NCBI RefSeq assembly: GCF_022846255.1
Contig: NZ_AP025682.1
Reading direction: 5' to 3' (one strand)
DNA from: Escherichia coli
GTDB lineage: Bacteria > Pseudomonadota > Gammaproteobacteria > Enterobacterales > Enterobacteriaceae
Length of the DNA stretch: 64,000 nt
Below the pieces are notes generated by a model. It did no database searches. It was not told the origin of the DNA and saw only the letters and a program-made list of their open reading frames with translations. Below, in pieces: positions 1,864 to 59,113 of the stretch (position 1 is the stretch's first letter; each line of letters starts with the position of its first letter). The position numbers were made by a program, and so were the translations under genes.

Positions 1864-2772
1864 ATGAATACAGATACGTTTATGTGCAGCAGCGACGAAA
1901 AGCAGACCCGTAGCCCACTGTCGCTGTATTCAGAATACCAGCGGATGGAAATTGAGTTTCGCGCACCGCATATCATGCCCACCAGCCACTGGCATGGTCA
2001 GGTCGAAGTGAATGTGCCTTTCGATGGCGATGTGGAATACCTGATCAACAATGAAAAAGTGAATATCAATCAGGGTCATATCACGCTGTTCTGGGCCTGT
2101 ACACCGCACCAACTAACAGATACCGGAACCTGTCAGAGCATGGCGATTTTTAATCTGCCGATGCATCTGTTTCTCTCCTGGCCGCTGGATAAAGACCTGA
2201 TTAACCACGTTACTCACGGCATGGTGATCAAATCACTGGCGACACAGCAACTTAGCCCGTTTGAAGTGCGCCGCTGGCAGCAGGAATTAAACAGTCCGAA
2301 CGAGCAAATTCGCCAGCTCGCCATTGATGAAATTGGCCTGATGCTCAAGCGATTTAGCCTCTCTGGCTGGGAACCGATTCTGGTCAATAAAACCTCGCGC
2401 ACACACAAAAACAGCGTCTCGCGCCATGCGCAATTTTATGTCAGCCAGATGCTGGGCTTTATTGCCGAAAACTATGATCAGGCGCTGACCATCAACGATG
2501 TGGCTGAGCACGTCAAACTTAACGCCAACTATGCAATGGGGATATTCCAGCGGGTCATGCAATTGACGATGAAACAGTACATAACCGCGATGCGCATCAA
2601 CCACGTTCGCGCGTTACTGAGCGATACCGATAAAAGTATTCTCGATATTGCCCTGACGGCAGGCTTTCGTTCGAGTAGCCGTTTTTACAGCACGTTCGGC
2701 AAATATGTCGACATGTCGCCGCAACAATACCGCAAACTTAGCCAACAGCGCCGCCAGACGTTTCCCGGCTAA
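1864..2772 (+). CDS. melR: AraC-family melibiose operon activator
   Basis: ORF track 302 aa; C-terminal AraC-type HTH region; position divergent from melA. Confidence 0.9.
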   Translation: MNTDTFMCSSDEKQTRSPLSLYSEYQRMEIEFRAPHIMPTSHWHGQVEVNVPFDGDVEYLINNEKVNINQGHITLFWACTPHQLTDTGTCQSMAIFNLPMHLFLSWPLDKDLINHVTHGMVIKSLATQQLSPFEVRRWQQELNSPNEQIRQLAIDEIGLMLKRFSLSGWEPILVNKTSRTHKNSVSRHAQFYVSQMLGFIAENYDQALTINDVAEHVKLNANYAMGIFQRVMQLTMKQYITAMRINHVRALLSDTDKSILDIALTAGFRSSSRFYSTFGKYVDMSPQQYRKLSQQRRQTFPG

Positions 2773-2967
2773 AGACGATATCAGTATCAGCCAAAAAAAT
2801 AGTTTAGCCGTCGATAATAAGCAGTGAAAATAATTTAAAATAATCACATAACGTGTTGTTTATAAAAATAAATATTTCAAAAATGTTTGTTTTTCACGCG
2901 CTTTACAGCCCGAAAAGGCCGGAAGATACTTGCCCGCAACGAAGATTCCTTCATAACCGGGTAAGCA

Positions 2968-5238
2968 ATGATGAAAGTATTAATTGTTGAAAGCGAGTTT
3001 CTCCATCAAGACACCTGGGTCGGTAACGCCGTTGAGCGTCTGGCAGATGCTTTAAGCCAGCAAAATGTTACCGTGATTAAATCCACCTCCTTTGATGATG
3101 GTTTTGCCATTCTCTCTTCAAACGAAGCCATTGACTGCCTGATGTTCAGCTATCAAATGGAACATCCGGACGAACATCAAAACGTCAGACAATTGATCGG
3201 TAAGCTTCATGAGCGCCAACAAAACGTGCCGGTCTTCCTGTTGGGCGATCGGGAAAAAGCCCTCGCCGCAATGGACCGGGATCTGCTGGAGCTTGTCGAT
3301 GAATTCGCCTGGATTCTGGAAGATACTGCCGACTTTATCGCCGGACGCGCCGTTGCCGCGATGACCCGCTACCGCCAGCAGCTGTTGCCGCCACTGTTCA
3401 GCGCGCTGATGAAATATAGCGACATCCATGAATATTCCTGGGCAGCGCCAGGCCACCAGGGCGGCGTTGGTTTTACTAAAACACCCGCCGGACGTTTCTA
3501 CCATGACTACTATGGTGAAAATCTGTTCCGCACCGACATGGGCATCGAACGCACTTCCCTCGGTTCTTTGCTTGACCATACTGGCGCATTTGGCGAAAGC
3601 GAAAAATATGCCGCACGCGTATTTGGTGCCGATCGCTCCTGGTCGGTAGTCGTCGGTACTTCCGGCTCTAACCGCACCATCATGCAGGCTTGCATGACCG
3701 ATAACGATGTCGTGGTCGTTGACCGTAACTGCCATAAATCCATCGAACAAGGCTTGATGCTGACAGGCGCGAAACCGGTCTACATGGTGCCAAGCCGCAA
3801 CCGCTACGGCATTATCGGGCCAATCTATCCGCAGGAAATGCAACCTGAAACCTTGCAGAAGAAAATCAGTGAAAGCCCGCTGACCAAAGACAAAGCCGGG
3901 CAAAAACCGTCTTACTGCGTGGTGACCAACTGCACCTATGACGGCGTGTGTTATAACGCTAGAGAAGCACAGGATCTGCTGGAAAAAACCTCCGATCGTC
4001 TGCACTTTGACGAAGCCTGGTACGGCTATGCACGTTTCAACCCGATCTATGCCGATCACTATGCCATGCGCGGCGAACCTGGCGATCACAACGGTCCTAC
4101 CGTTTTCGCCACCCACTCCACCCACAAACTGCTGAATGCGCTGTCCCAGGCCTCTTATATTCATGTACGTGAAGGTCGTGGGGCGATTAACTTCTCCCGC
4201 TTCAACCAGGCCTACATGATGCATGCCACCACCTCCCCGCTGTATGCCATCTGCGCATCCAACGACGTGGCGGTGTCGATGATGGACGGCAACAGCGGCC
4301 TGTCACTGACCCAGGAAGTGATCGACGAAGCGGTTGATTTCCGTCAGGCGATGGCGCGGCTATATAAAGAGTTCACCGCTGACGGTAGCTGGTTCTTCAA
4401 ACCGTGGAACAAAGAAGTCGTCACCGACCCACAAACCGGCAAAACCTATGACTTTGCTGACGCACCAACCAAACTGCTGACCACCGTTCAGGACTGCTGG
4501 GTCATGCATCCGGGCGAAAGCTGGCACGGCTTCAAAGATATTCCGGATAACTGGAGTATGCTCGACCCAATTAAAGTCAGCATCCTTGCTCCGGGAATGG
4601 GTGAAGATGGTGAACTGGAAGAAACCGGTGTTCCGGCGGCGCTGGTCACTGCCTGGCTTGGTCGCCACGGCATTGTGCCTACCCGCACCACTGACTTCCA
4701 AATTATGTTCCTGTTCTCTATGGGCGTAACCCGTGGGAAATGGGGGACTCTGGTTAACACCCTTTGCTCCTTCAAACGCCACTATGACGCCAACACACCG
4801 CTGGCGCAGGTGATGCCGGAACTTGTTGAACAATATCCTGACACTTACGCGAACATGGGGATTCACGATCTGGGTGACACCATGTTTGCCTGGCTGAAAG
4901 AAAACAACCCTGGCGCACGGTTGAACGAAGCCTATTCCGGCCTGCCGGTGGCGGAAATCACCCCGCGTGAAGCGTACAACGCGATTGTCGACAACAATGT
5001 CGAACTGGTATCCATTGAAAACCTGCCAGGACGCATCGCGGCAAACTCAGTTATCCCGTATCCGCCAGGAATCCCGATGCTGCTGTCTGGTGAAAACTTC
5101 GGCGATAAAAACAGTCCGCAAGTAAGTTATTTACGCTCGCTGCAATCCTGGGACCATCATTTCCCTGGATTTGAACACGAAACAGAAGGGACAGAAATTA
5201 TTGATGGTATTTACCACGTTATGTGTGTGAAAGCGTAA
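2968..5238 (+). CDS. adiA: biodegradative (acid-inducible) arginine decarboxylase
   Basis: ORF track 756 aa; recognised as AdiA (PLP-dependent Orn/Lys/Arg decarboxylase fold); the start may be the second ATG at 2971. Confidence 0.9.
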   Translation: MMKVLIVESEFLHQDTWVGNAVERLADALSQQNVTVIKSTSFDDGFAILSSNEAIDCLMFSYQMEHPDEHQNVRQLIGKLHERQQNVPVFLLGDREKALAAMDRDLLELVDEFAWILEDTADFIAGRAVAAMTRYRQQLLPPLFSALMKYSDIHEYSWAAPGHQGGVGFTKTPAGRFYHDYYGENLFRTDMGIERTSLGSLLDHTGAFGESEKYAARVFGADRSWSVVVGTSGSNRTIMQACMTDNDVVVVDRNCHKSIEQGLMLTGAKPVYMVPSRNRYGIIGPIYPQEMQPETLQKKISESPLTKDKAGQKPSYCVVTNCTYDGVCYNAREAQDLLEKTSDRLHFDEAWYGYARFNPIYADHYAMRGEPGDHNGPTVFATHSTHKLLNALSQASYIHVREGRGAINFSRFNQAYMMHATTSPLYAICASNDVAVSMMDGNSGLSLTQEVIDEAVDFRQAMARLYKEFTADGSWFFKPWNKEVVTDPQTGKTYDFADAPTKLLTTVQDCWVMHPGESWHGFKDIPDNWSMLDPIKVSILAPGMGEDGELEETGVPAALVTAWLGRHGIVPTRTTDFQIMFLFSMGVTRGKWGTLVNTLCSFKRHYDANTPLAQVMPELVEQYPDTYANMGIHDLGDTMFAWLKENNPGARLNEAYSGLPVAEITPREAYNAIVDNNVELVSIENLPGRIAANSVIPYPPGIPMLLSGENFGDKNSPQVSYLRSLQSWDHHFPGFEHETEGTEIIDGIYHVMCVKA

Positions 5239-17105: not shown

Positions 17106-17123
17106 TTGTATTGTGATCGGTAA

Positions 17124-17199
17124 GCCGGATAAGGCGCTCGCGCCGCATCCGGCAACGATGCCGACAGCCTGATGCGACGCTGACCGCGTCTTATCAGGC
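17124..17199. repeat. REP (repetitive extragenic palindrome) pair
   Basis: gccggataaggcgctcgcgccgcatccggc and gcctgatgcgacgctgaccgcgtcttatcaggc; typical REP stem-loops. Confidence 0.75.
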
Positions 17200-17264
17200 T
17201 TCCCTCTCATCTGTATAAATTTCGAACTACACTTAACTGGCTTCTCTTAACTGAGGTCACCATC

Positions 17265-19673: not shown

Positions 19674-19759
19674 GTAGGTCGGATAAGACGCCCGGCGTCG
19701 CATCCGACAATGTGCAGACGTTGATGCCGGATGCGGTGCAAGCACCTTATCCGGCCTAC
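19674..19759. repeat. REP pair between phnD and phnE
   Basis: gtaggtcggataagacgcccggcgtcgcatccgaca and gatgccggatgcggtgcaagcaccttatccggcctac. Confidence 0.75.
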
Positions 19760-19774
19760 AGACCGGAGCCAAAC

Positions 19775-20554
19775 ATGCAAACCATCACCATCGCCCCACC
19801 CAAGCGCAGCTGGTTCTCGCTTCTGAGCTGGGCCGTTGTTATCGCCGTGCTGGTCGTCTCGTGGCAGGGCGCGGAAATGGCCCCGCTTACGCTGATTAAA
19901 GATGGCGGCAACATGGCGACGTTCGCCGCCGACTTCTTCCCGCCCGATTTCAGCCAGTGGCAGGATTACCTCACCGAAATGGCCGTCACGCTGCAAATCG
20001 CCGTCTGGGGCACCGCGCTGGCGGTGGTTCTCTCCATCCCCTTCGGCCTGATGAGCGCTGAAAACCTGGTACCGTGGTGGGTCTACCAACCTGTACGCCG
20101 CCTGATGGACGCCTGCCGCGCCATTAACGAAATGGTCTTCGCCATGCTGTTCGTGGTCGCCGTCGGCCTCGGCCCGTTCGCTGGCGTGCTGGCGCTGTTT
20201 ATCCACACCACCGGCGTACTTTCCAAACTGCTTTCCGAAGCGGTAGAAGCGATTGAACCCGGCCCGGTGGAGGGCATTCGCGCCACTGGTGCCAACAAGC
20301 TGGAAGAGATCCTCTACGGCGTACTACCGCAGGTCATGCCGCTGCTGATTTCCTACTCTCTCTATCGCTTCGAATCCAACGTCCGCTCGGCGACCGTCGT
20401 CGGTATGGTTGGCGCGGGCGGAATTGGCGTCACGCTGTGGGAAGCGATTCGCGGTTTCCAGTTCCAGCAAACCTGCGCCCTGATGGTGCTCATCATCGTC
20501 ACGGTCAGCCTGCTGGATTTCCTCTCTCAACGGTTGCGTAAGCACTTTATCTGA
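19775..20554 (+). CDS. phnE: phosphonate ABC transporter permease (intact reading frame)
   Basis: ORF track 19712..20554 starts inside the REP; ATG 19775 with SD GGAG gives 259 aa (MQTITIAPP...); no frameshift. Confidence 0.85.
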
Positions 20555-31897: not shown

Positions 31898-33430
31898 ATG
31901 GCCACGCCATATATATCGATGGCGGGGATCGGCAAGTCCTTTGGTCCGGTTCACGCATTAAGGTCGGTTAATTTAACGGTTTATCCTGGTGAAATACATG
32001 CATTACTAGGAGAAAATGGTGCAGGTAAATCTACGCTAATGAAAGTGTTATCCGGAATACATGAGCCGACCAAAGGCACCATTACCATTAATAACATTAA
32101 CTATAACAAACTGGATCATAAATTAGCGGCACAACTCGGTATCGGGATTATTTATCAGGAACTCAGCGTTATTGATGAATTAACCGTACTGGAAAATTTA
32201 TATATTGGTCGTCATCTGACGAAAAAAATCTGCGGTGTCAATATTATCGACTGGCGAGAAATGCGTGTCCGCGCCGCCATGATGTTATTACGCGTGGGCT
32301 TGAAAGTTGATTTAGATGAGAAAGTGGCGAACTTATCTATCAGCCACAAGCAGATGCTGGAAATTGCCAAAACGCTGATGCTCGACGCCAAAGTCATCAT
32401 CATGGATGAACCCACCTCCTCACTCACCAATAAAGAGGTGGACTATTTGTTTCTGATCATGAATCAGTTGCGTAAGGAGGGTACGGCCATCGTCTATATC
32501 TCGCATAAATTGGCGGAAATTCGCCGTATTTGCGACCGCTATACGGTGATGAAAGACGGCAGCAGCGTTTGCAGCGGCATGGTGAGCGATGTGTCAAATG
32601 ACGATATCGTCCGTCTGATGGTAGGCCGCGAACTGCAAAACCGTTTTAACGCGATGAAGGAGAATGTCAGCAACCTTGCGCACGATACGGTTTTTGAGGT
32701 GCGCAACGTCACCAGCCGTGACAGAAAAAAGGTCCGGGATATCTCATTTAGCGTCTGCCGGGGAGAAATATTAGGCTTTGCCGGACTGGTCGGTTCCGGA
32801 CGTACTGAACTGATGAACTGCCTGTTTGGCGTTGATAAACGCGCTGGCGGAGAAATCCGTCTTAATGGTAAAGATATCTCTCCACGTTCTCCCCTGGATG
32901 CCGTGAAAAAAGGGATGGCTTACATCACTGAAAGCCGCCGGGATAACGGCTTTTTCCCCAACTTTTCTATCGCTCAGAACATAGCTATCAGCCGCAGTCT
33001 GAAAGACGGCGGCTATAAAGGCGCGATGGGGTTGTTTCATGAAGTTGACGAGCAACGTACCGCTGAAGCCCAGCGCGAACTGCTGGCGCTGAAATGTCAT
33101 TCGGTAAACCAGAACATCACTGAACTCTCCGGCGGTAACCAGCAGAAAGTCCTGATCTCCAAATGGCTGTGCTGTCGCCCGGAAGTGATCATTTTCGATG
33201 AACCTACCCGTGGCATCGATGTTGGCGCGAAAGCCGAAATTTACAAAGTGATGCGCCAACTGGCGGACGACGGAAAAGTCATCCTGATGGTGTCATCTGA
33301 ACTACCTGAAATTATCACCGTCTGCGACCGCATCGCCGTGTTCTGCGAAGGACGACTGACGCAAATCCTGACGAATCGCGATGACATGAGCGAAGAGGAG
33401 ATTATGGCATGGGCTTTACCACAAGAGTAA
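31898..33430 (+). CDS. alsA: D-allose ABC transporter ATPase (duplicated ABC domains)
   Basis: ORF track 510 aa; two Walker A motifs. Confidence 0.9.
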   Translation: MATPYISMAGIGKSFGPVHALRSVNLTVYPGEIHALLGENGAGKSTLMKVLSGIHEPTKGTITINNINYNKLDHKLAAQLGIGIIYQELSVIDELTVLENLYIGRHLTKKICGVNIIDWREMRVRAAMMLLRVGLKVDLDEKVANLSISHKQMLEIAKTLMLDAKVIIMDEPTSSLTNKEVDYLFLIMNQLRKEGTAIVYISHKLAEIRRICDRYTVMKDGSSVCSGMVSDVSNDDIVRLMVGRELQNRFNAMKENVSNLAHDTVFEVRNVTSRDRKKVRDISFSVCRGEILGFAGLVGSGRTELMNCLFGVDKRAGGEIRLNGKDISPRSPLDAVKKGMAYITESRRDNGFFPNFSIAQNIAISRSLKDGGYKGAMGLFHEVDEQRTAEAQRELLALKCHSVNQNITELSGGNQQKVLISKWLCCRPEVIIFDEPTRGIDVGAKAEIYKVMRQLADDGKVILMVSSELPEIITVCDRIAVFCEGRLTQILTNRDDMSEEEIMAWALPQE

Positions 33431-39799: not shown

Positions 39800-41850
39800 T
39801 GAGCGCGCTCAACTCCCTGCCATTACCGGTGGTCAGGCTGCTGGCGTTCTTTCATGAAGAGTTAAGCGAGCGGCGACCAGGGCGCGTGCCACAGACGATG
39901 CAACTCTGGGTAGGTTGCCTGCTGGTGATTCTGATCTCGATGACTTTTGAGATCCCTTTTGTGGCGTTATCACTGGCAGTGCTGTTTTACGGTATTCAGT
40001 CGAACGCGTTTTACACCAAATTTGTCGCGATCTTGTTTGTGGTTGCCACGGTGCTGGAGATCGCCAGCCTGTTTTTGATCTACAAATGGTCATATGGCGA
40101 ACCGTTGATCCGATTGATCATCGCCGGGCCGATCCTGATGGGCTGCATGTTTTTGATGCGCACCCATCGGCTGGGACTGGTCTTTTTCGCCGTCGCCATT
40201 GTCGCTATTTACGGGCAAACCTTCCCCGCTATGCTCGACTATCCGGAAGCGGTCGTGCGCTTAACGCTGTGGTGTATCGTTGTTGGCCTCTATCCAACCT
40301 TGCTGATGACGTTAATCGGCGTGCTGTGGTTTCCCAGTCGTGCCATTACGCAGATGCATCAGGCGCTTAATGATCGGCTTGATGATGCCATTAGCCACCT
40401 GACGGACAGCCTCGCACCGCTACCCGAAACGCGGATTGAAAGAGAGGCGCTGGCGCTGCAAAAACTCAATGTCTTTTGCCTCGCGGATGATGCCAACTGG
40501 CGAACCCAGAGCGCATGGTGGCAAAGCTGCGTGGCAACGGTAACCTACATTTACTCGACGCTGAATCGCTACGATCCCACCTCTTTTGCTGATTCTCAGG
40601 CAATTATTGAATTCCGACAAAAATTAGCTTCAGAAATCAACAAGCTGCAGCATTCCATTACCGAAGGTCAGTGCTGGCAAAGCGACTGGCGGATCAGTGA
40701 AAGTGAAGCGATGACGGCACGGGAATGTAACCTGGAGAATATCTGCCAGACGCTGTTACAGCTTGGTCAGATGGACCCGAATACGCCGCCAACGCCCGCA
40801 GCCAAACCGCCATCAATGGTCGCCGATGCTTTTACCAATCCAGACTATATGCGCTACGCGGTAAAAACGCTGCTCGCCTGTTTGATCTGTTACACCTTCT
40901 ACAGCGGCGTGGACTGGGAAGGCATTCATACCTGTATGCTGACCTGCGTGATCGTCGCTAATCCAAATGTCGGTTCGTCGTACCAGAAGATGGTGCTGCG
41001 TTTTGGTGGGGCCTTTTGCGGCGCGATTCTGGCGCTGTTATTCACGCTACTGGTCATGCCCTGGCTGGACAATATTGTCGAATTGCTGTTTGTGCTGGCA
41101 CCGATTTTCCTGTTGGGCGCATGGATTGCCACCAGCTCTGAACGCTCTTCTTATATCGGCACACAGATGGTGGTCACCTTCGCGCTCGCCACGCTCGAAA
41201 ACGTTTTTGGCCCGGTGTACGACCTGGTGGAAATTCGCGATCGCGCTCTGGGTATCATCATTGGTACCGTGGTGTCGGCGGTGATTTACACCTTTGTCTG
41301 GGCTGAAAGCGAAGCGCGCACGCTGCCGCAAAAACTGGCTGGCGCGCTGGGTATGTTGAGTAAAGTAATGCGGATCCCACGCCAGCAGGAAGTCACGGCT
41401 CTGCGCACTTATCTGCACATTCGCATAGGTCTGCATGCGGCGTTTAATGCCTGTGAAGAGATGTGCCAACGCGTGGTGCTGGAGCGTCAACTGGACAGCG
41501 AAGAACGCGCATTACTGATTGAACGTTCGCAAACGGTTATTCGTCAGGGCCGCGATATTCTTCACGCCTGGGATGCCACCTGGAACTCGGCGCAGGCGCT
41601 GGATAACGCACTACAGCCGGACAGAGCAGGTCAGTTTGCCGACGCCCTGGAGAAATACGCTGCCGGTGTGGCTACCGCACTCAGTCATTCTCCTCAAATA
41701 ACGTTAGAAGAGACATCCGCCTCGCAGGCCATTCTGCCCACCTTATTAAAACAGGAGCAACACGTCTGCCAGCTTTTCGCCCGCTTGCCAGACTGGACAG
41801 CCCCGGCATTAACGCCCGCCACGGAACAGGCACAAGGAGCCACGCAATGA
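39799..41850 (+). CDS. mdtO: multidrug efflux inner-membrane component
   Basis: ORF track 683 aa; 1-nt overlap with mdtN. Confidence 0.88.
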   Translation: MSALNSLPLPVVRLLAFFHEELSERRPGRVPQTMQLWVGCLLVILISMTFEIPFVALSLAVLFYGIQSNAFYTKFVAILFVVATVLEIASLFLIYKWSYGEPLIRLIIAGPILMGCMFLMRTHRLGLVFFAVAIVAIYGQTFPAMLDYPEAVVRLTLWCIVVGLYPTLLMTLIGVLWFPSRAITQMHQALNDRLDDAISHLTDSLAPLPETRIEREALALQKLNVFCLADDANWRTQSAWWQSCVATVTYIYSTLNRYDPTSFADSQAIIEFRQKLASEINKLQHSITEGQCWQSDWRISESEAMTARECNLENICQTLLQLGQMDPNTPPTPAAKPPSMVADAFTNPDYMRYAVKTLLACLICYTFYSGVDWEGIHTCMLTCVIVANPNVGSSYQKMVLRFGGAFCGAILALLFTLLVMPWLDNIVELLFVLAPIFLLGAWIATSSERSSYIGTQMVVTFALATLENVFGPVYDLVEIRDRALGIIIGTVVSAVIYTFVWAESEARTLPQKLAGALGMLSKVMRIPRQQEVTALRTYLHIRIGLHAAFNACEEMCQRVVLERQLDSEERALLIERSQTVIRQGRDILHAWDATWNSAQALDNALQPDRAGQFADALEKYAAGVATALSHSPQITLEETSASQAILPTLLKQEQHVCQLFARLPDWTAPALTPATEQAQGATQ

Positions 41851-43313
41851 TCAATCGTCAACTTTCACGTCTGCTGTTGTGCAGCATTCTCGGCAGCACG
41901 ACGCTGATTTCCGGCTGTGCCCTGGTACGTAAGGATTCTGCGCCTCATCAACAGCTCAAACCGGAGCAAATCAAACTGGCCGATGATATTCATCTTGCCA
42001 GCTCCGGCTGGCCGCAGGCGCAGTGGTGGAAACAACTCAATGACCCGCAGCTGGATTCGCTGATCCAACGGACGCTAAGTGGTTCACACCCCCTCGCCGA
42101 AGCGAAACTGCGGGAAGAAAAAGCGCAGTCCCAGGCCGATTTGTTAGATGCCGGTTCACAATTACAGGTCGCAGCGTTAGGGATGCTCAACCGCCAACGC
42201 GTCTCGGCGAACGGCTTTTTAAGCCCTTATGCGATGGATGCGCCAGCACTGGGTATGGACGGGCCGTACTATACGGAAGCCACAGTCGGTTTGTTTGCCG
42301 GACTGGATCTCGATTTGTGGGGTGTGCATCGCTCAGCGGTTGCTGCCGCCATTGGCGCGCATAATGCCGCGCTGGCAGAAACCGCAGCAGTAGAGCTATC
42401 GCTGACCACGGGCGTAGCGCAGCTTTATTACAGTATGCAGGCCAGCTATCAGATGCTCGATCTGTTAGAACAAACTCGCGATGTGATTGATTACGCGGTG
42501 AAAGCGCACCAGAGTAAAGTGGCGCACGGTCTGGAAGCGCAAGTGCCTTTCCACGGCGCGCGGGCACAGATTCTGGCGGTCGATAAACAAATTGCTGCCG
42601 TTAAAGGGCAAATCACCGAAACGAGAGAATCTCTGCGCGCATTGATTGGCGCGGGCGCCAGCGATATGCCGGAGATCAAACCGGTGGCATTACCGCGAGT
42701 CCAGACCGGCATTCCGGCAACGCTCTCTTATGAGTTGCTCGCCAGACGCCCGGATCTGCAAGCCATGCGCTGGTATGTTCAGGCGTCATTAGATCAGGTG
42801 GATTCCGCGCGGGCGTTGTTCTACCCGAGCTTTGATATCAAAGCGTTTTTCGGCCTGGATTCTATCCACCTGGATACCTTATTCAAAAAAACCAGTCGCC
42901 AGTTCAACTTCATCCCGGGTCTGAAATTGCCGCTGTTTGACGGTGGACGGTTGAATGCCAATCTCGAAGGCACGCGCGCCGCCAGCAACATGATGATTGA
43001 ACGTTACAACCAGTCAGTACTGAACGCGGTGCGCGACGTTGCCGTCAACGGCACGCGTCTGCAAACGCTTAACGACGAGCGAGAGATGCAGGCTGAACGC
43101 GTGGAAGCAACGCGCTTCACCCAGCGCGCTGCCGAGGCCGCCTACCAGCGCGGCTTAACCAGCCGCTTACAGGCCACCGAAGCCCGGTTGCCAGTGCTTG
43201 CCGAGGAGATGTCATTACTGATGCTGGACAGCCGCCGGGTGATCCAAAGCATTCAGTTGATGAAATCGCTGGGCGGCGGGTATCAGGCGGCTCCCGTCGT
43301 CGAGAAAAAATAA
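41847..43313 (+). CDS. mdtP: multidrug efflux outer-membrane factor lipoprotein
   Basis: ORF track 488 aa; lipobox LISGC; overlaps the mdtO end. Confidence 0.88.
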   Translation: MINRQLSRLLLCSILGSTTLISGCALVRKDSAPHQQLKPEQIKLADDIHLASSGWPQAQWWKQLNDPQLDSLIQRTLSGSHPLAEAKLREEKAQSQADLLDAGSQLQVAALGMLNRQRVSANGFLSPYAMDAPALGMDGPYYTEATVGLFAGLDLDLWGVHRSAVAAAIGAHNAALAETAAVELSLTTGVAQLYYSMQASYQMLDLLEQTRDVIDYAVKAHQSKVAHGLEAQVPFHGARAQILAVDKQIAAVKGQITETRESLRALIGAGASDMPEIKPVALPRVQTGIPATLSYELLARRPDLQAMRWYVQASLDQVDSARALFYPSFDIKAFFGLDSIHLDTLFKKTSRQFNFIPGLKLPLFDGGRLNANLEGTRAASNMMIERYNQSVLNAVRDVAVNGTRLQTLNDEREMQAERVEATRFTQRAAEAAYQRGLTSRLQATEARLPVLAEEMSLLMLDSRRVIQSIQLMKSLGGGYQAAPVVEKK

Positions 43314-43320
43314 AATGTCT

Positions 43321-43355
43321 ACCGCGTGATGGCTGTCACGCGGTATTTCGTTTCG
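43321..43355 (+). terminator. mdtP terminator hairpin
   Basis: accgcgtga-tggctg-tcacgcggt followed by atttcgtttcg. Confidence 0.55.
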
Positions 43356-43400
43356 TCACGTCAAAACTGACGACAGCCTGTTTTTCGTCAGAGTTTTGAA
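43355..43400 (+). promoter_or_regulatory. upstream activating palindromes (FhlA-type UAS) of the fdhF promoter
   Basis: Inverted repeats tcaaaactgacga / tcgtcagagttttga about 70 to 115 nt upstream of the sigma-54 element. Confidence 0.45.
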
Positions 43401-43443
43401 TAAATAGTGCCCGTAATATCAGGGAATGACCCCAAATAAAATG

Positions 43444-43460
43444 TGGCATAAAAGATGCAT
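43444..43460 (+). promoter_or_regulatory. sigma-54 (-24/-12) promoter of fdhF
   Basis: tGGcataaaagatGCa: GG at 43445..43446 and GC at 43457..43458 with the canonical 10-nt spacing. Confidence 0.65.
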
Positions 43461-43510
43461 ACTGTAGTCGAGAGCGCGTATGCGTGATTTGATTAACTGG
43501 AGCGAGACCG

Positions 43511-45658
43511 ATGAAAAAAGTCGTCACGGTTTGCCCCTATTGCGCGTCAGGTTGCAAAATCAACCTGGTCGTCGATAACGGCAAAATCGTCCGGGCGGAG
43601 GCAGCGCAGGGGAAAACCAACCAGGGTACCCTGTGTCTGAAGGGTTATTATGGCTGGGACTTCATTAACGATACCCAGATCCTGACCCCGCGCCTGAAAA
43701 CCCCCATGATCCGTCGCCAGCGTGGCGGCAAACTCGAACCTGTTTCCTGGGATGAGGCACTGAATTACGTTGCCGAGCGCCTGAGCGCCATCAAAGAGAA
43801 GTACGGTCCGGATGCCATCCAGACGACCGGCTCCTCGCGTGGTACGGGTAACGAAACCAACTATGTAATGCAAAAATTTGCGCGCGCCGTTATTGGTACC
43901 AATAACGTTGACTGCTGCGCTCGTGTCTGACACGGCCCATCGGTTGCAGGTCTGCACCAATCGGTCGGTAATGGCGCAATGAGCAATGCTATTAACGAAA
44001 TTGATAATACCGATTTAGTGTTCGTTTTCGGGTATAACCCGGCGGATTCCCACCCAATCGTGGCGAATCACGTAATTAACGCTAAACGTAACGGGGCGAA
44101 AATTATCGTCTGCGATCCGCGCAAAATTGAAACTGCGCGCATTGCTGACATGCACATTGCATTGAAAAACGGCTCGAACATCGCGCTGTTGAATGCGATG
44201 GGCCATGTCATTATTGAAGAAAATCTGTACGACAAAGCGTTCGTCGCTTCCCGTACAGAAGGCTTTGAAGAGTATCGTAAAATCGTTGAAGGCTACACGC
44301 CGGAGTCGGTTGAAGATATCACCGGCGTCAGCGCCAGTGAGATTCGTCAGGCGGCATGGATGTATGCCCAGGCGAAAAGCGCCGCCATCCTGTGGGGCAT
44401 GGGTGTAACCCAGTTCTACCAGGGCGTGGAAACCGTGCGTTCTCTGACCAGCCTCGCGATGCTGACCGGTAACCTCGGTAAGCCACATGCGGGTGTTAAC
44501 CCGGTTCGTGGTCAGAACAACGTACAGGGTGCCTGCGATATGGGCGCGCTGCCGGATACGTATCCGGGATACCAGTACGTGAAAGATCCGGCTAACCGCG
44601 AGAAATTCGCCAAAGCCTGGGGCGTGGAAAGCCTGCCCGCTCATACCGGTTATCGCATCAGCGAGCTGCCGCACCGCGCAGCGCATGGTGAAGTGCGTGC
44701 CGCGTACATTATGGGCGAAGATCCGCTACAAACTGACGCGGAGCTGTCGGCAGTACGTAAAGCCTTTGAAGATCTGGAACTGGTCATCGTTCAGGACATC
44801 TTTATGACCAAAACCGCGTCGGCGGCGGATGTCATTTTACCGTCAACGTCGTGGGGCGAGCATGAAGGCGTGTTTACTGCGGCTGACCGTGGCTTCCAGC
44901 GTTTCTTTAAAGCAGTTGAACCGAAATGGGATCTGAAAACGGACTGGCAGATTATCAGTGAAATCGCCACCCGTATGGGTTATCCGATGCACTACAACAA
45001 CACCCAGGAGATCTGGGATGAGTTGCGTCATCTGTGCCCGGATTTCTACGGTGCGACTTACGAGAAAATGGGCGAACTGGGCTTCATTCAGTGGCCTTGC
45101 CGCGATACTTCAGATGCCGATCAGGGGACTTCTTATCTGTTTAAAGAGAAGTTTGATACCCCGAACGGTCTGGCGCAGTTCTTCACCTGCGACTGGGTAG
45201 CGCCAATCGACAAACTCACCGACGAGTACCCGATGGTACTGTCAACGGTGCGTGAAGTTGGTCACTACTCTTGCCGTTCGATGACCGGTAACTGTGCGGC
45301 ACTGGCGGCGCTGGCTGATGAACCTGGCTACGCACAAATCAATACCGAAGACGCCAAACGTCTGGGTATTGAAGATGAGGCATTGGTTTGGGTGCACTCG
45401 CGTAAAGGCAAAATTATCACCCGTGCGCAGGTCAGCGATCGTCCGAACAAAGGGGCGATTTACATGACCTACCAGTGGTGGATTGGTGCCTGTAACGAGC
45501 TGGTTACCGAAAACTTAAGCCCGATTACGAAAACGCCGGAATACAAATACTGCGCCGTGCGCGTCGAGCCGATCGCCGATCAGCGCGCCGCCGAGCAGTA
45601 TGTGATTGACGAGTACAACAAGTTGAAAACTCGCCTGCGCGAAGCGGCACTGGCGTAA
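43511..45658 (+). CDS. fdhF: formate dehydrogenase H, selenocysteine-containing molybdoenzyme (in-frame UGA 43928..43930 read as Sec)
   Basis: ORF track splits it into 43511..43930 and 43979..45658, both in one frame; Cys-rich N-terminal Fe-S motif; SECIS hairpin directly after the UGA; total 715 codons. Confidence 0.9.
43931..43975 (+). other. SECIS stem-loop for selenocysteine insertion in fdhF mRNA
   Basis: cacggcccatcggttgcaggtctgcaccaatcggtcggtaatggc immediately 3' of the in-frame TGA. Confidence 0.75.
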
Positions 45659-45671
45659 TACAGTCCTTTCT

Positions 45672-45699
45672 ACAGCCTCCTTTCGGAGGCTGTTTTTTT
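45672..45699 (+). terminator. fdhF intrinsic terminator
   Basis: acagcctcc-tttc-ggaggctgt followed by a T-run. Confidence 0.8.
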
Positions 45700-45751
45700 A
45701 TCCATTCGAACTCTTTATACTGGTTACTCCCTACCCAATCGTATTATCAAA

Positions 45752-46441
45752 ATGAAAAAAATTATCGCATTGATGTTGTTTTTGACATTCTTTGCCCACG
45801 CGAACGACTCCGAGCCTGGCAGCCAGTATTTAAAGGCAGCAGAGGCCGGAGACCGACGCGCACAATATTTTCTTGCCGACAGCTGGTTTAGCTCCGGCGA
45901 TTTGAGCAAAGCCGAATATTGGGCACAGAAAGCCGCCGACAGCGGTGATGCCGATGCCTGCGCGCTGTTGGCGCAGATCAAAATCACCAATCCGGTCAGT
46001 CTGGACTATCCACAAGCAAAAGTTCTTGCAGAGAAAGCGGCGCAAGCGGGCAGTAAAGAAGGTGAAGTAACGCTGGCGCATATTCTGGTAAATACTCAAG
46101 CGGGTAAACCGGATTATCCAAAGGCAATTTCGCTGTTAGAAAACGCCTCGGAAGATCTGGAGAACGACTCTGCCGTCGATGCCCAAATGCTGCTTGGTTT
46201 GATTTACGCCAACGGCGTGGGCATTAAGGCCGACGATGACAAGGCAACCTGGTATTTCAAACGCAGCTCTGCGATTTCCCGAACCGGTTATTCCGAGTAC
46301 TGGGCGGGAATGATGTTCTTAAACGGTGAAGAAGGTTTTATCGAGAAGAACAAACAAAAGGCGCTGCACTGGTTAAATCTGAGCTGTATGGAAGGGTTTG
46401 ATACCGGGTGTGAAGAGTTTGAAAAATTAACTAACGGTTAA
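45752..46441 (+). CDS. yjcO: Sel1-repeat (TPR-like) periplasmic protein
   Basis: ORF track 229 aa; signal peptide and Sel1-like repeats. Confidence 0.8.
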   Translation: MKKIIALMLFLTFFAHANDSEPGSQYLKAAEAGDRRAQYFLADSWFSSGDLSKAEYWAQKAADSGDADACALLAQIKITNPVSLDYPQAKVLAEKAAQAGSKEGEVTLAHILVNTQAGKPDYPKAISLLENASEDLENDSAVDAQMLLGLIYANGVGIKADDDKATWYFKRSSAISRTGYSEYWAGMMFLNGEEGFIEKNKQKALHWLNLSCMEGFDTGCEEFEKLTNG

Positions 46442-46443
46442 GG

Positions 46444-46481
46444 TAGGCCTGATAAGACGCGGTAAGCGTCGCATCAGGCAT
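46444..46481. repeat. REP element between yjcO and gltP
   Basis: gtaggcctgataagacgcggtaagcgtcgcatcaggca; adjacent GC hairpin gccggg...cccggc at 46491..46510. Confidence 0.7.
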
Positions 46482-46519
46482 CCACATATTGCCGGGTGGA
46501 TATCCCCGGCAATCTTCAA

Positions 46520-47833
46520 TTATTGATCCGCAGTTTTATCAAATTTGCCCAGCACTTCACGCTCATAAGCCAGCGCTTTCTTACGGTCAAATTTGTGTTC
46601 CCACTTGGCAATCACCAGCACCGCCAGCGCATTACCCACCACGTTCAGCGCAGTACGCGCCATATCGAGGATACGGTCAACACCGGCAATAAACGCCAGA
46701 CCTTCCAGCGGAATACCTACGCTACCCAGCGTTGCCAGCAGCACCACAAACGACACGCCCGGCACGCCAGCAATCCCTTTCGAGGTCACCATCAGCGTCA
46801 GCACCAGAATGATTTCCTGCCAGATGGACAGGTCAATGCCATACAGCTGAGCGATGAAAATAGCGGCAATACTTTGATACAGCGTCGAACCATCAAGGTT
46901 AAAAGAGTAACCGGTCGGCACCACGAAACTGGTGATCGACGCCGGTGCACCGTAGGCTTCCATCTTCTCAATAATTCGCGGCAGCACGCTTTCAGAACTG
47001 GCAGTGGAGTACGCCAGAATCAGCTCATCTTTCAGAATACGAATCAGGATCCAGACACTTAACCCGCACAGGCGCGCCACAATTCCCAGTACGACCAGCG
47101 CGAAGAACAGAATGGCGAAATGCACCAACAGCACCAGTTTCGCCAGTGGCCACAGAGACGAGAAACCAAAGTTAGCCACCGTCACCGCAATCAGCGCAAA
47201 CACACCCACCGGCGCATAACGCATCACCATGTGAGTCACTTTAAACATGGTTTCAGAGATGGAGCGGAAAACGGTCACCAGCGGTTCACGATGCGTCGCG
47301 GGCAGGGATGAAAGCCCCAGACCAAACAGCACCGAGAAGAAGATGATCGGCAGCATTTCGCCTTTCGCCATCGACGCCACGATGTTCGTCGGCACCAGCG
47401 ACAAAATCGTGCCCATAATGCCGTGGGAACTGCTTTGTACCGCTTCCGTGGTGCTCTGATATTTCGAGATATCGACGGTCGCCAGCTGCGACATATCCAC
47501 CCCGGCACCGGGCTGGAAGACGTTCGCCAGAGTGATCCCCAAAATGATGGCGACGGTGGTGATCACCTCGAAGTAGATAATGGTTTTCGCACCAATACGC
47601 CCGAGCTGTTTGGCATCACCAACACCCGCGATACCCACCACCAGCGTGGAGATCACAATCGGCACAACAATCATTTTGATCAGATGGATGAAGATATCAC
47701 CCGCCGGAGAGAGCAAATTGACGACCAGCCAGTCGCGGCTGTCGCTATGGTAGTGCAGGTAGCTTCCCAGGAGAATGCCCAGCACCATAGCAAACAGAAT
47801 CTGCCAGGCCAGGCTGAATTTTATATTTTTCAT
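46520..47833 (-). CDS. gltP: glutamate/aspartate:proton symporter (DAACS family)
   Basis: ORF track 437 aa. Confidence 0.9.
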   Translation of the reverse strand: MKNIKFSLAWQILFAMVLGILLGSYLHYHSDSRDWLVVNLLSPAGDIFIHLIKMIVVPIVISTLVVGIAGVGDAKQLGRIGAKTIIYFEVITTVAIILGITLANVFQPGAGVDMSQLATVDISKYQSTTEAVQSSSHGIMGTILSLVPTNIVASMAKGEMLPIIFFSVLFGLGLSSLPATHREPLVTVFRSISETMFKVTHMVMRYAPVGVFALIAVTVANFGFSSLWPLAKLVLLVHFAILFFALVVLGIVARLCGLSVWILIRILKDELILAYSTASSESVLPRIIEKMEAYGAPASITSFVVPTGYSFNLDGSTLYQSIAAIFIAQLYGIDLSIWQEIILVLTLMVTSKGIAGVPGVSFVVLLATLGSVGIPLEGLAFIAGVDRILDMARTALNVVGNALAVLVIAKWEHKFDRKKALAYEREVLGKFDKTADQ

Positions 47834-48175
47834 CAGAATAACTTCCTCAATGGAGCGCCGTTCCCCGTTCAGAAACGCGAGAACGTGACATACTGCCAGG
47901 GCATGAATTGTGTTGCGTTGGTTTGTAGATTTTTTTAACGCTTATGATCAGTATCATTTGCGCGGTATGTTGCGCAACCCTTTAACAACAGAGCTTTTCG
48001 CTGCATTAATGCATAATAACGCGAGTTTATGGCAGGATTAATGAATAACCATTTGTTATAGAAGGATTTTTATTTGTTTAATCTGCAATAATACTGATTG
48101 GTGATTATTTTTGATTATATGTTCATTCGATTATTTTTTATGCAGCTCAATAACATAATCTTCATCACCAGATGA

Positions 48176-48772
48176 TTAATCTGATTTCCGCTGCAACAAT
48201 TTCGCCATATTAATCGACTCGACCAGCTGTGTCCGGTTGATCCGGGGTGAGTTGAGATCCATCACTTTTTGCCATAGTTCGATGGCTTGCGCGTAGTTCG
48301 CCTGCATAAACGCATCGGAAGCCAGCAGCATCAGAGCGGTGATTTCGTTAGAGTCCAGCGCGAGGGCTCTGTCGATCATTGCGCGAGCCTGGACGGTCAT
48401 ATGTTGGCTGGCCTGGTAATACAGCACCGTCGCCAGCGCCGCATACAGTTCAGCGTTCTCACCACGTAGTTGCAACGCCTGACGGTACGCCAGCAGCGAA
48501 TTGCTGTAATCGTTTTGCCACAGATAATACTCGCCCAGTAACGCCCACTGTTCGCTGTTTTGTGGATTAGCACGGATTTTATCCTGCAATGCCTGAAGCT
48601 GCGCTTCCGGGGTTTGCTGGCTGGCAAACTGATGCAGCGGATCGCGCTGACGCTGATACTCCGCACGTACCGCCTGCCATTTTGGACTTAACAGATAACT
48701 GCCGACACAGAGAAATACCATCAAAATCGTGAGTGTTGTCAGCATTTTCACCGGTATTTGGGGCTGTTTCAT
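48176..48772 (-). CDS. nrfG: TPR protein for heme attachment to NrfA
   Basis: ORF track 48176..48838 trimmed to the start giving 198 aa ([13 protein letters not shown]...). Confidence 0.8.
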
Positions 48773-56910: not shown

Positions 56911-57025
56911 GCCGGATGCGCTCCGGGCAACAAGTCGGAAACGATTTGTAGGCCTGATAAGACGCGACAGCGTCGCATCAGGCGTTGATTGCCGGATGCG
57001 GCGTGAATGCCTTATCCGGCCTACA
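56911..57025. repeat. REP cluster downstream of acs
   Basis: Three REP-like units with the gccggatgcg... and gcctgataagacgcg... cores. Confidence 0.7.
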
Positions 57026-59082: not shown

Positions 59083-59113
59083 TTCCCCGGTCGCTTGATC
59101 GGGGAATTTCTTC
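59083..59113 (+). terminator. actP intrinsic terminator, shared with the convergent LrgB-like gene
   Basis: ttccccg-gtcgcttgat-cggggaa followed by tttcttc; the LrgB-like stop codon lies in the T-tail. Confidence 0.6.

Follow-up and report, generated by a model that had tools for sequence, protein, structure and literature searches.

Does the TGA at positions 43928-43930 of a 64,000-nucleotide stretch of Escherichia coli DNA (hereafter, the window) terminate a gene, or is it a sense codon within one? The list of open reading frames for the window contains an ORF of 139 amino acids at 43511..43930, which ends at this TGA, and a second ORF of 559 amino acids at 43979..45658. A first-pass annotation made from the sequence alone had read the pair as one selenoprotein gene, fdhF, with a stable SECIS hairpin directly after the TGA. 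Our analysis leads to the same answer. The interval 43511-45658 is almost certainly a single gene, E. coli fdhF, in which UGA codon 140 is read as selenocysteine by means of a SECIS element. No result of the analysis speaks against this reading. The features assigned in the window are listed in Table 1.

Table 1. Features assigned in the window, with coordinates, strand, and the basis for each assignment
Feature	Position	Strand	Basis or remark
fdhF, complete CDS, 715 codons plus stop, Sec codon 140	43511..45658	+	Translation, PDB match, TIGR01591, RefSeq
UGA codon 140, decoded as selenocysteine	43928..43930	+	Aligns with X (Sec), residue 140 of the FDH-H crystal sequence
SECIS element, full Rfam SECIS_2 model, inside the CDS	43923..43977	+	RF01988 covariance model, RNAfold structure
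Minimal SelB-binding minihelix, 17 nt, GGUUGCAGGUCUGCACC	43942..43958	+	nt 15-31, with U of UGA as nt 1
Codon 283, TGG (Trp); CGG (Arg) in reference FdhF; rare missense allele	44357..44359	+	C-to-T at 44357
Sigma-54-type -24/-12 promoter-like element, TGGCAT-N5-ATGCA	43444..43459	+	52 nt upstream of the fdhF start codon
GGAG Shine-Dalgarno-like motif	43499..43502	+	8 nt before ATG, read from sequence
STnc630 sRNA, 182 bits	11291-11456	-	Rfam; overlaps the small pmrR ORF and the basS 3' end
naRNA4 (REP-type), intergenic spacer	17123-17200	+	Rfam
naRNA4 (REP-type), intergenic spacer	19677-19756	-	Rfam
naRNA4 (REP-type), intergenic spacer	56951-57021	-	Rfam

The Two ORFs Encode One Formate Dehydrogenase

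The starts of the two ORFs are 468 nt (156 codons) apart, and the ORFs are therefore in the same frame, as the first-pass annotation had stated. Translation of 43511-45658 as one continuous frame encountered a single internal stop, at codon 140, and no change of frame between the ORFs.

For database searches the product was joined into a 715-residue sequence with Cys placed at residue 140. This sequence gave an end-to-end match to FDH-H with a score of 1665 bits, and 713 of its 715 residues are identical to the crystallized E. coli FDH-H chains (PDB 1AA6, 1FDI, 1FDO, 2IV2, and 7Z0T). The two non-identical residues are 140, given as X (selenocysteine) in the PDB sequences, and 283, where the PDB sequences have Arg and the window has Trp. 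The proposal that fdhF carries selenocysteine at the UGA is thus borne out: the joined product is FDH-H and the UGA falls at position 140 of the solved structure. The same Cys-substituted query scored 1092.8 bits against the NCBIfam equivalog TIGR01591 (formate dehydrogenase subunit alpha), for which the curated cut-off is 666.25, with residues 6-685 covering profile positions 1-672 of 672.

FDH-H is a molybdenum- and selenium-containing enzyme and the formate-oxidizing subunit of the formate hydrogenlyase complex. The Sec140-His141 pair, Arg333, and Lys44, which are reportedly the catalytic and cofactor-ligating residues, are all present in the joined product and align with 1AA6. The same is true of the N-terminal Cys8, Cys11, Cys15, and Cys42, which we take from the FDH-H structure literature to be the 4Fe-4S motif.

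The RefSeq annotations of strains GF131, FDAARGOS_1373, and K-12 each give a single fdhF CDS of 2148 nt over the same interval, and some records name the product [quoted passage not shown] By megablast, 5419 of 5426 complete E. coli genomes contain the 2.3-kb fdhF region. As a separate observation, 4 of 5420 fdhF matches were on records labeled as plasmids (for example NZ_CP048307.1 of strain 9, 94 kb long, at 32887-32957); such records may reflect pieces of chromosome submitted under a plasmid label, or else genuine transfer.

A SECIS Element Follows the UGA Codon

An Rfam scan of the whole window matched the SECIS_2 covariance model (RF01988) on the plus strand with a score of 87.1 bits and an E-value of 1.8e-17, over model positions 1-55 of 55. 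The gathering score for this family is 70. The hairpin that had been proposed to lie after the UGA, and whose quoted sequence is present exactly as written, is therefore a match to a curated bacterial SECIS family. The Rfam consensus structure is the same as the MFE structure predicted by RNAfold.

The E. coli fdhF SECIS has been described as a 40-nt hairpin in which the upper 17 nt (nt 15-31) are separated from the UGA by 11 nt and the bases U17, G23, and U24 are critical (PMC8659212), and the SECIS that follows UGA140 encodes residues 141-153 (PMC4513850). With the U of UGA (43928) as nt 1, the 11-nt spacer in the window is CACGGCCCAUC and occupies nt 4-14. Nucleotides 17 and 18, within the minihelix, are both U (43944/43945), with a bulge at one of the two in the MFE structure. 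The apical loop, GGUC, occupies nt 22-25 (43949-43952) and places G23 at 43950 and U24 at 43951. The spacer, the minihelix, U17, G23, and U24 are thus all at their published positions (PMC8659212, PMC4513850). Residues 141-153, HGPSVAGLHQSVG, are encoded by 43931-43969 and are identical to the corresponding residues of the FDH-H crystal sequence.

The description of the hairpin as stable needs qualification. RNAfold predicts the expected stem-loop for positions 43925-43980 (56 nt), with an energy of -17.5 kcal/mol. However, the 56-nt hairpin in isolation does not exceed shuffled sequence in stability, with a z-score of -0.76 against dinucleotide shuffles, 44 of 200 of which fold as well; its energy is uninformative as a test of significance. 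Its stability was to that extent overstated, and we relied instead on the covariance model and on folding in a longer context. In a 131-nt context the same hairpin is found in both the MFE and the centroid structures, with a z-score of -2.43, and 2 of 200 shuffles are as good. It is the Rfam covariance model, together with the end-to-end FDH-H match, that puts the SECIS beyond chance; folding energy does not.

Conservation of the Recoding Signal

The 71-nt segment centered on the UGA and SECIS is shared without a single difference by 5405 of 5420 E. coli records. Over the whole gene, fdhF in the window has 22 nucleotide differences from that of K-12, lying on both sides of the UGA; 21 are synonymous and one is a missense change, R283W. 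This synonymous pattern on both sides of the codon indicates that purifying selection has probably acted on the whole of a single frame, unlike the pattern of a pseudogene.

These data bear directly on the possibility that the TGA is a true nonsense mutation or a sequencing error and that fdhF is a pseudogene here. The mechanical ORF list does give two ORFs, and thousands of fdhF fragments are held publicly as separate "proteins." Yet the TGA and flanks conserved in the 5405 records are annotated there as part of one CDS, the codon aligns with the selenocysteine residue of the crystal structure, and a full-score SECIS lies directly after it. Moreover, 20 of the 21 differences from K-12 downstream of the TGA are synonymous, unlike decay. 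Because of the conservation and the SECIS match we regard the pseudogene interpretation as refuted and leave it practically no weight.

Outside E. coli, the fdhF genes of Raoultella ornithinolytica (L010) and of a Citrobacter koseri-type sequence (L011) agree with the window in the UGA, in the 11-nt length of the spacer, and in every base of the 17-nt minihelix. Their differences from the window are synonymous third-position changes only, at nt -4, 12, 33, 45, and 51 (U of UGA as nt 1), all outside nt 15-31. In the lower stem, one change gives a U-G wobble and one a U-U mismatch. This variation would be consistent with a requirement for the upper helix only, as far as two sequences can speak, being too few for a formal covariation test.

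A further alternative is that the UGA is read through without selenocysteine, by near-cognate insertion of Trp or Cys, and that the hairpin is a mere by-product of the coding sequence. The unremarkable folding energy of the isolated hairpin would suit such an account, as would the mismatches tolerated in the lower stem of the Raoultella element. It does not explain why the minihelix, bulged U, and GGUC loop are invariant and stand at precisely the 11-nt distance from the UGA that the definition of the SelB-binding element requires, nor why the covariance score is far above the gathering threshold. In addition, SECIS-dependent selenocysteine insertion with an efficiency of ∼30-40% has been measured in vivo and in vitro on the identical fdhF fragment (PMC4513850). 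We consider near-cognate readthrough to have a negligible likelihood, and retain SECIS-directed insertion of selenocysteine as the explanation of the UGA.

Selenocysteine Machinery and Proposed Decoding

The window contains no tRNA gene, and the K-12 selAB, selC, and selD sequences gave no blastn match to it. Of 5426 complete E. coli genomes, 5425 contain selAB, 5425 contain selD, and 5424 contain selC. From this near-universal presence in the species we infer that selA, selB, selC, and selD are carried by the source genome; their absence would be exceptional.

For SelB binding and selenocysteine insertion we draw on established knowledge of the system, according to which decoding would proceed as follows. 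As the ribosome nears UGA140, nt 15-31 of the downstream mRNA (43942-43958) would fold into the 17-nt minihelix, complete with bulged U and GGUC loop. The minihelix would bind the C-terminal domain of SelB, the specialized elongation factor that carries Sec-tRNA(Sec) and GTP. The tethered SelB complex, competing with release factor 2 (RF2), would then supply selenocysteine at the A-site UGA. Translation would go on in the same frame through the hairpin, which itself codes for residues 141-153, and ribosomes that fail to recode would release a 139-residue fragment.

The R283W Allele

The first-pass annotation had expected selenocysteine versus cysteine at the UGA codon to be the only difference from FdhF. 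This is not the case, as the product also differs at residue 283. R283W is the only non-synonymous difference from K-12 fdhF. None of 5413 complete E. coli genomes contains an exact copy of the 71 nt around 44357, and the nearest matches depart from it at one base, that of the C-to-T change. The column of residue 283 reads R, K, R, R, and R in five distant solved formate dehydrogenases.

A read error was considered as the origin of Trp283 and was rejected, given that three contigs in public collections encode the exact 559-residue fragment bearing it (GDA40011.1, from an E. coli WGS record). One of the three, a Logan contig of DRR102846, is 100% identical to positions 40979-48658 of the window (7.7 kb). 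A second Logan contig, from ERR9438629 (L006, positions 2533-4680), encodes the same protein with 21 synonymous differences in fdhF relative to 43511-45658, and its flanks differ from the window at ∼2% of positions. Trp283 thus sits on two fdhF haplotypes, presumably by recurrence or recombination.

Could the recoding be intact and the selenoprotein annotation right, but R283W make a hypomorphic fdhF allele with reduced formate hydrogenlyase activity? The change swaps a basic residue for Trp in a column that is R or K in the five solved enzymes, it is the sole non-synonymous change relative to K-12, and the allele is missing from the 5413 complete genomes searched. However, at least three public assemblies contain it, on two haplotypes 21 synonymous sites apart, and it therefore persists in nature; residue 283 is also outside the set of catalytic and cofactor-ligating residues named above. 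Judged from sequence comparison, a hypomorphic effect seems unlikely. It is likewise unlikely, in our estimate, that R283W has arisen repeatedly or spread by recombination and changes the activity or stability of FDH-H, so that some lineages have a naturally tuned or partly lost formate hydrogenlyase. R283W does not bear on the recoding mechanism. It is the sole element of this locus that is not textbook, and is a minor, strain-level curiosity.

Upstream Signals and Gene Neighborhood

Transcription of fdhF is formate-dependent and is driven by FhlA and sigma-54 (PMC11291172). The pattern TGGCAYN5WTGCW has a single match in the window, with ∼0.5 expected by chance. A lone match of this kind is not significant; its position upstream of fdhF fits the known regulation and is consistent with a putative promoter function. 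A Shine-Dalgarno-like motif precedes the start codon (Table 1).

The gene order in this part of the window is alsRBACEK-yjcS-ytcA-mdtNOP-fdhF-yjcO-gltP-nrfGFEDCBA-acs-yjcH-actP, colinear with K-12 in reverse orientation. A tblastn search with the 58 K-12 proteins of the region found 55 of them in the window, none with a gap. There was no match in the window for soxR and melB, which lie beyond its ends, or for yjcF. Of those found, ghxP is cut by the end of the window and the rdcB alignment covers 291 of 292 residues; the remaining orthologues are full length. The UGA of fdhF is the only in-frame stop among the K-12 orthologues in the window.

Complete E. coli genomes match the window at no more than ∼99% identity over 24 kb, and for this reason a Shigella-like origin, with fdhF decaying in a degraded genome, was considered. 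It was rejected, since the other K-12 orthologues are full length without stops or gaps, rdcB being one residue short. These orthologues being intact, the source genome is not one in decay.

Several other differences from related genomes were observed. In the complete genomes that resemble the window most over 24 kb, fdhF and yjcO are separated by a five-gene ABC-transporter cluster (L002, 23035-28105). This insert is missing from both the window and K-12 and accounts for the 6.3-kb difference in length from the top matches. The pentapeptide-repeat protein gene yjcF, which in K-12 lies in the actP-yjcE interval, has no counterpart in positions 59112-61192 of the window. That segment holds an LrgB-family ORF at 59112..59801 (minus strand) and a LysR-type regulator ORF at 60308..61192 (plus strand); FDAARGOS_1373 has LrgB-family and CidA/LrgA-family genes and a LysR regulator at the same position. 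Between phnD and phnF there is an uninterrupted 280-residue ORF (19712-20554) where K-12 annotates the phnE1 pseudogene, and phnE looks intact in this strain. At gathering level, the Rfam scan of the window returned four matches besides SECIS_2, one to STnc630 and three to naRNA4 (Table 1).

Split fdhF Fragments in Public Annotation

That simple ORF callers would split fdhF, as had been predicted, is evident from public protein clusters, which contain the exact 139-residue and 559-residue fragments. The cluster holding the shorter fragment has 2374 members and that holding the longer one 11377. The split halves (43511-43927 and 43979-45655 in the window) have been deposited from E. coli, Klebsiella, Citrobacter, Raoultella, and Enterobacter, some of them under the name "hypothetical protein, partial." The practical value of the locus lies in annotation. 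ORF tracks that treat UGA as a stop cut fdhF into 139- and 559-residue pieces, and scans should flag and merge such pieces and not call a pseudogene. On the opposite strand, a TTG-initiated ORF of 137 residues (43547-43960, minus strand) spans the UGA and SECIS. It lies wholly inside the conserved fdhF CDS and is most likely a chance ORF.

Comparison with Known Systems

The UGA and SECIS of fdhF are real and already fully known, being the founding and fully characterized example of bacterial selenocysteine insertion. With K-12 fdhF (b4079) the window shares the gene, its place between mdtP and yjcO, the UGA, and a 55-nt SECIS of unchanged sequence.

At the level of the protein, solved homologues among the formate dehydrogenases and the hydrogen-dependent CO2 reductase align over nearly the whole length of the product, with E-values of 1e-147 to 1e-197. 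They include FdhF of the Thermoanaerobacter kivui HDCR (PDB 7QV7), an F420-dependent formate dehydrogenase (PDB 9T1S), and Rhodobacter FdsA (PDB 6TG9), which belong to the same Mo/W-bis-PGD fold family and have a basic residue in the column of R283. Enzymes of these types differ from FDH-H in their partner subunits and electron acceptors.
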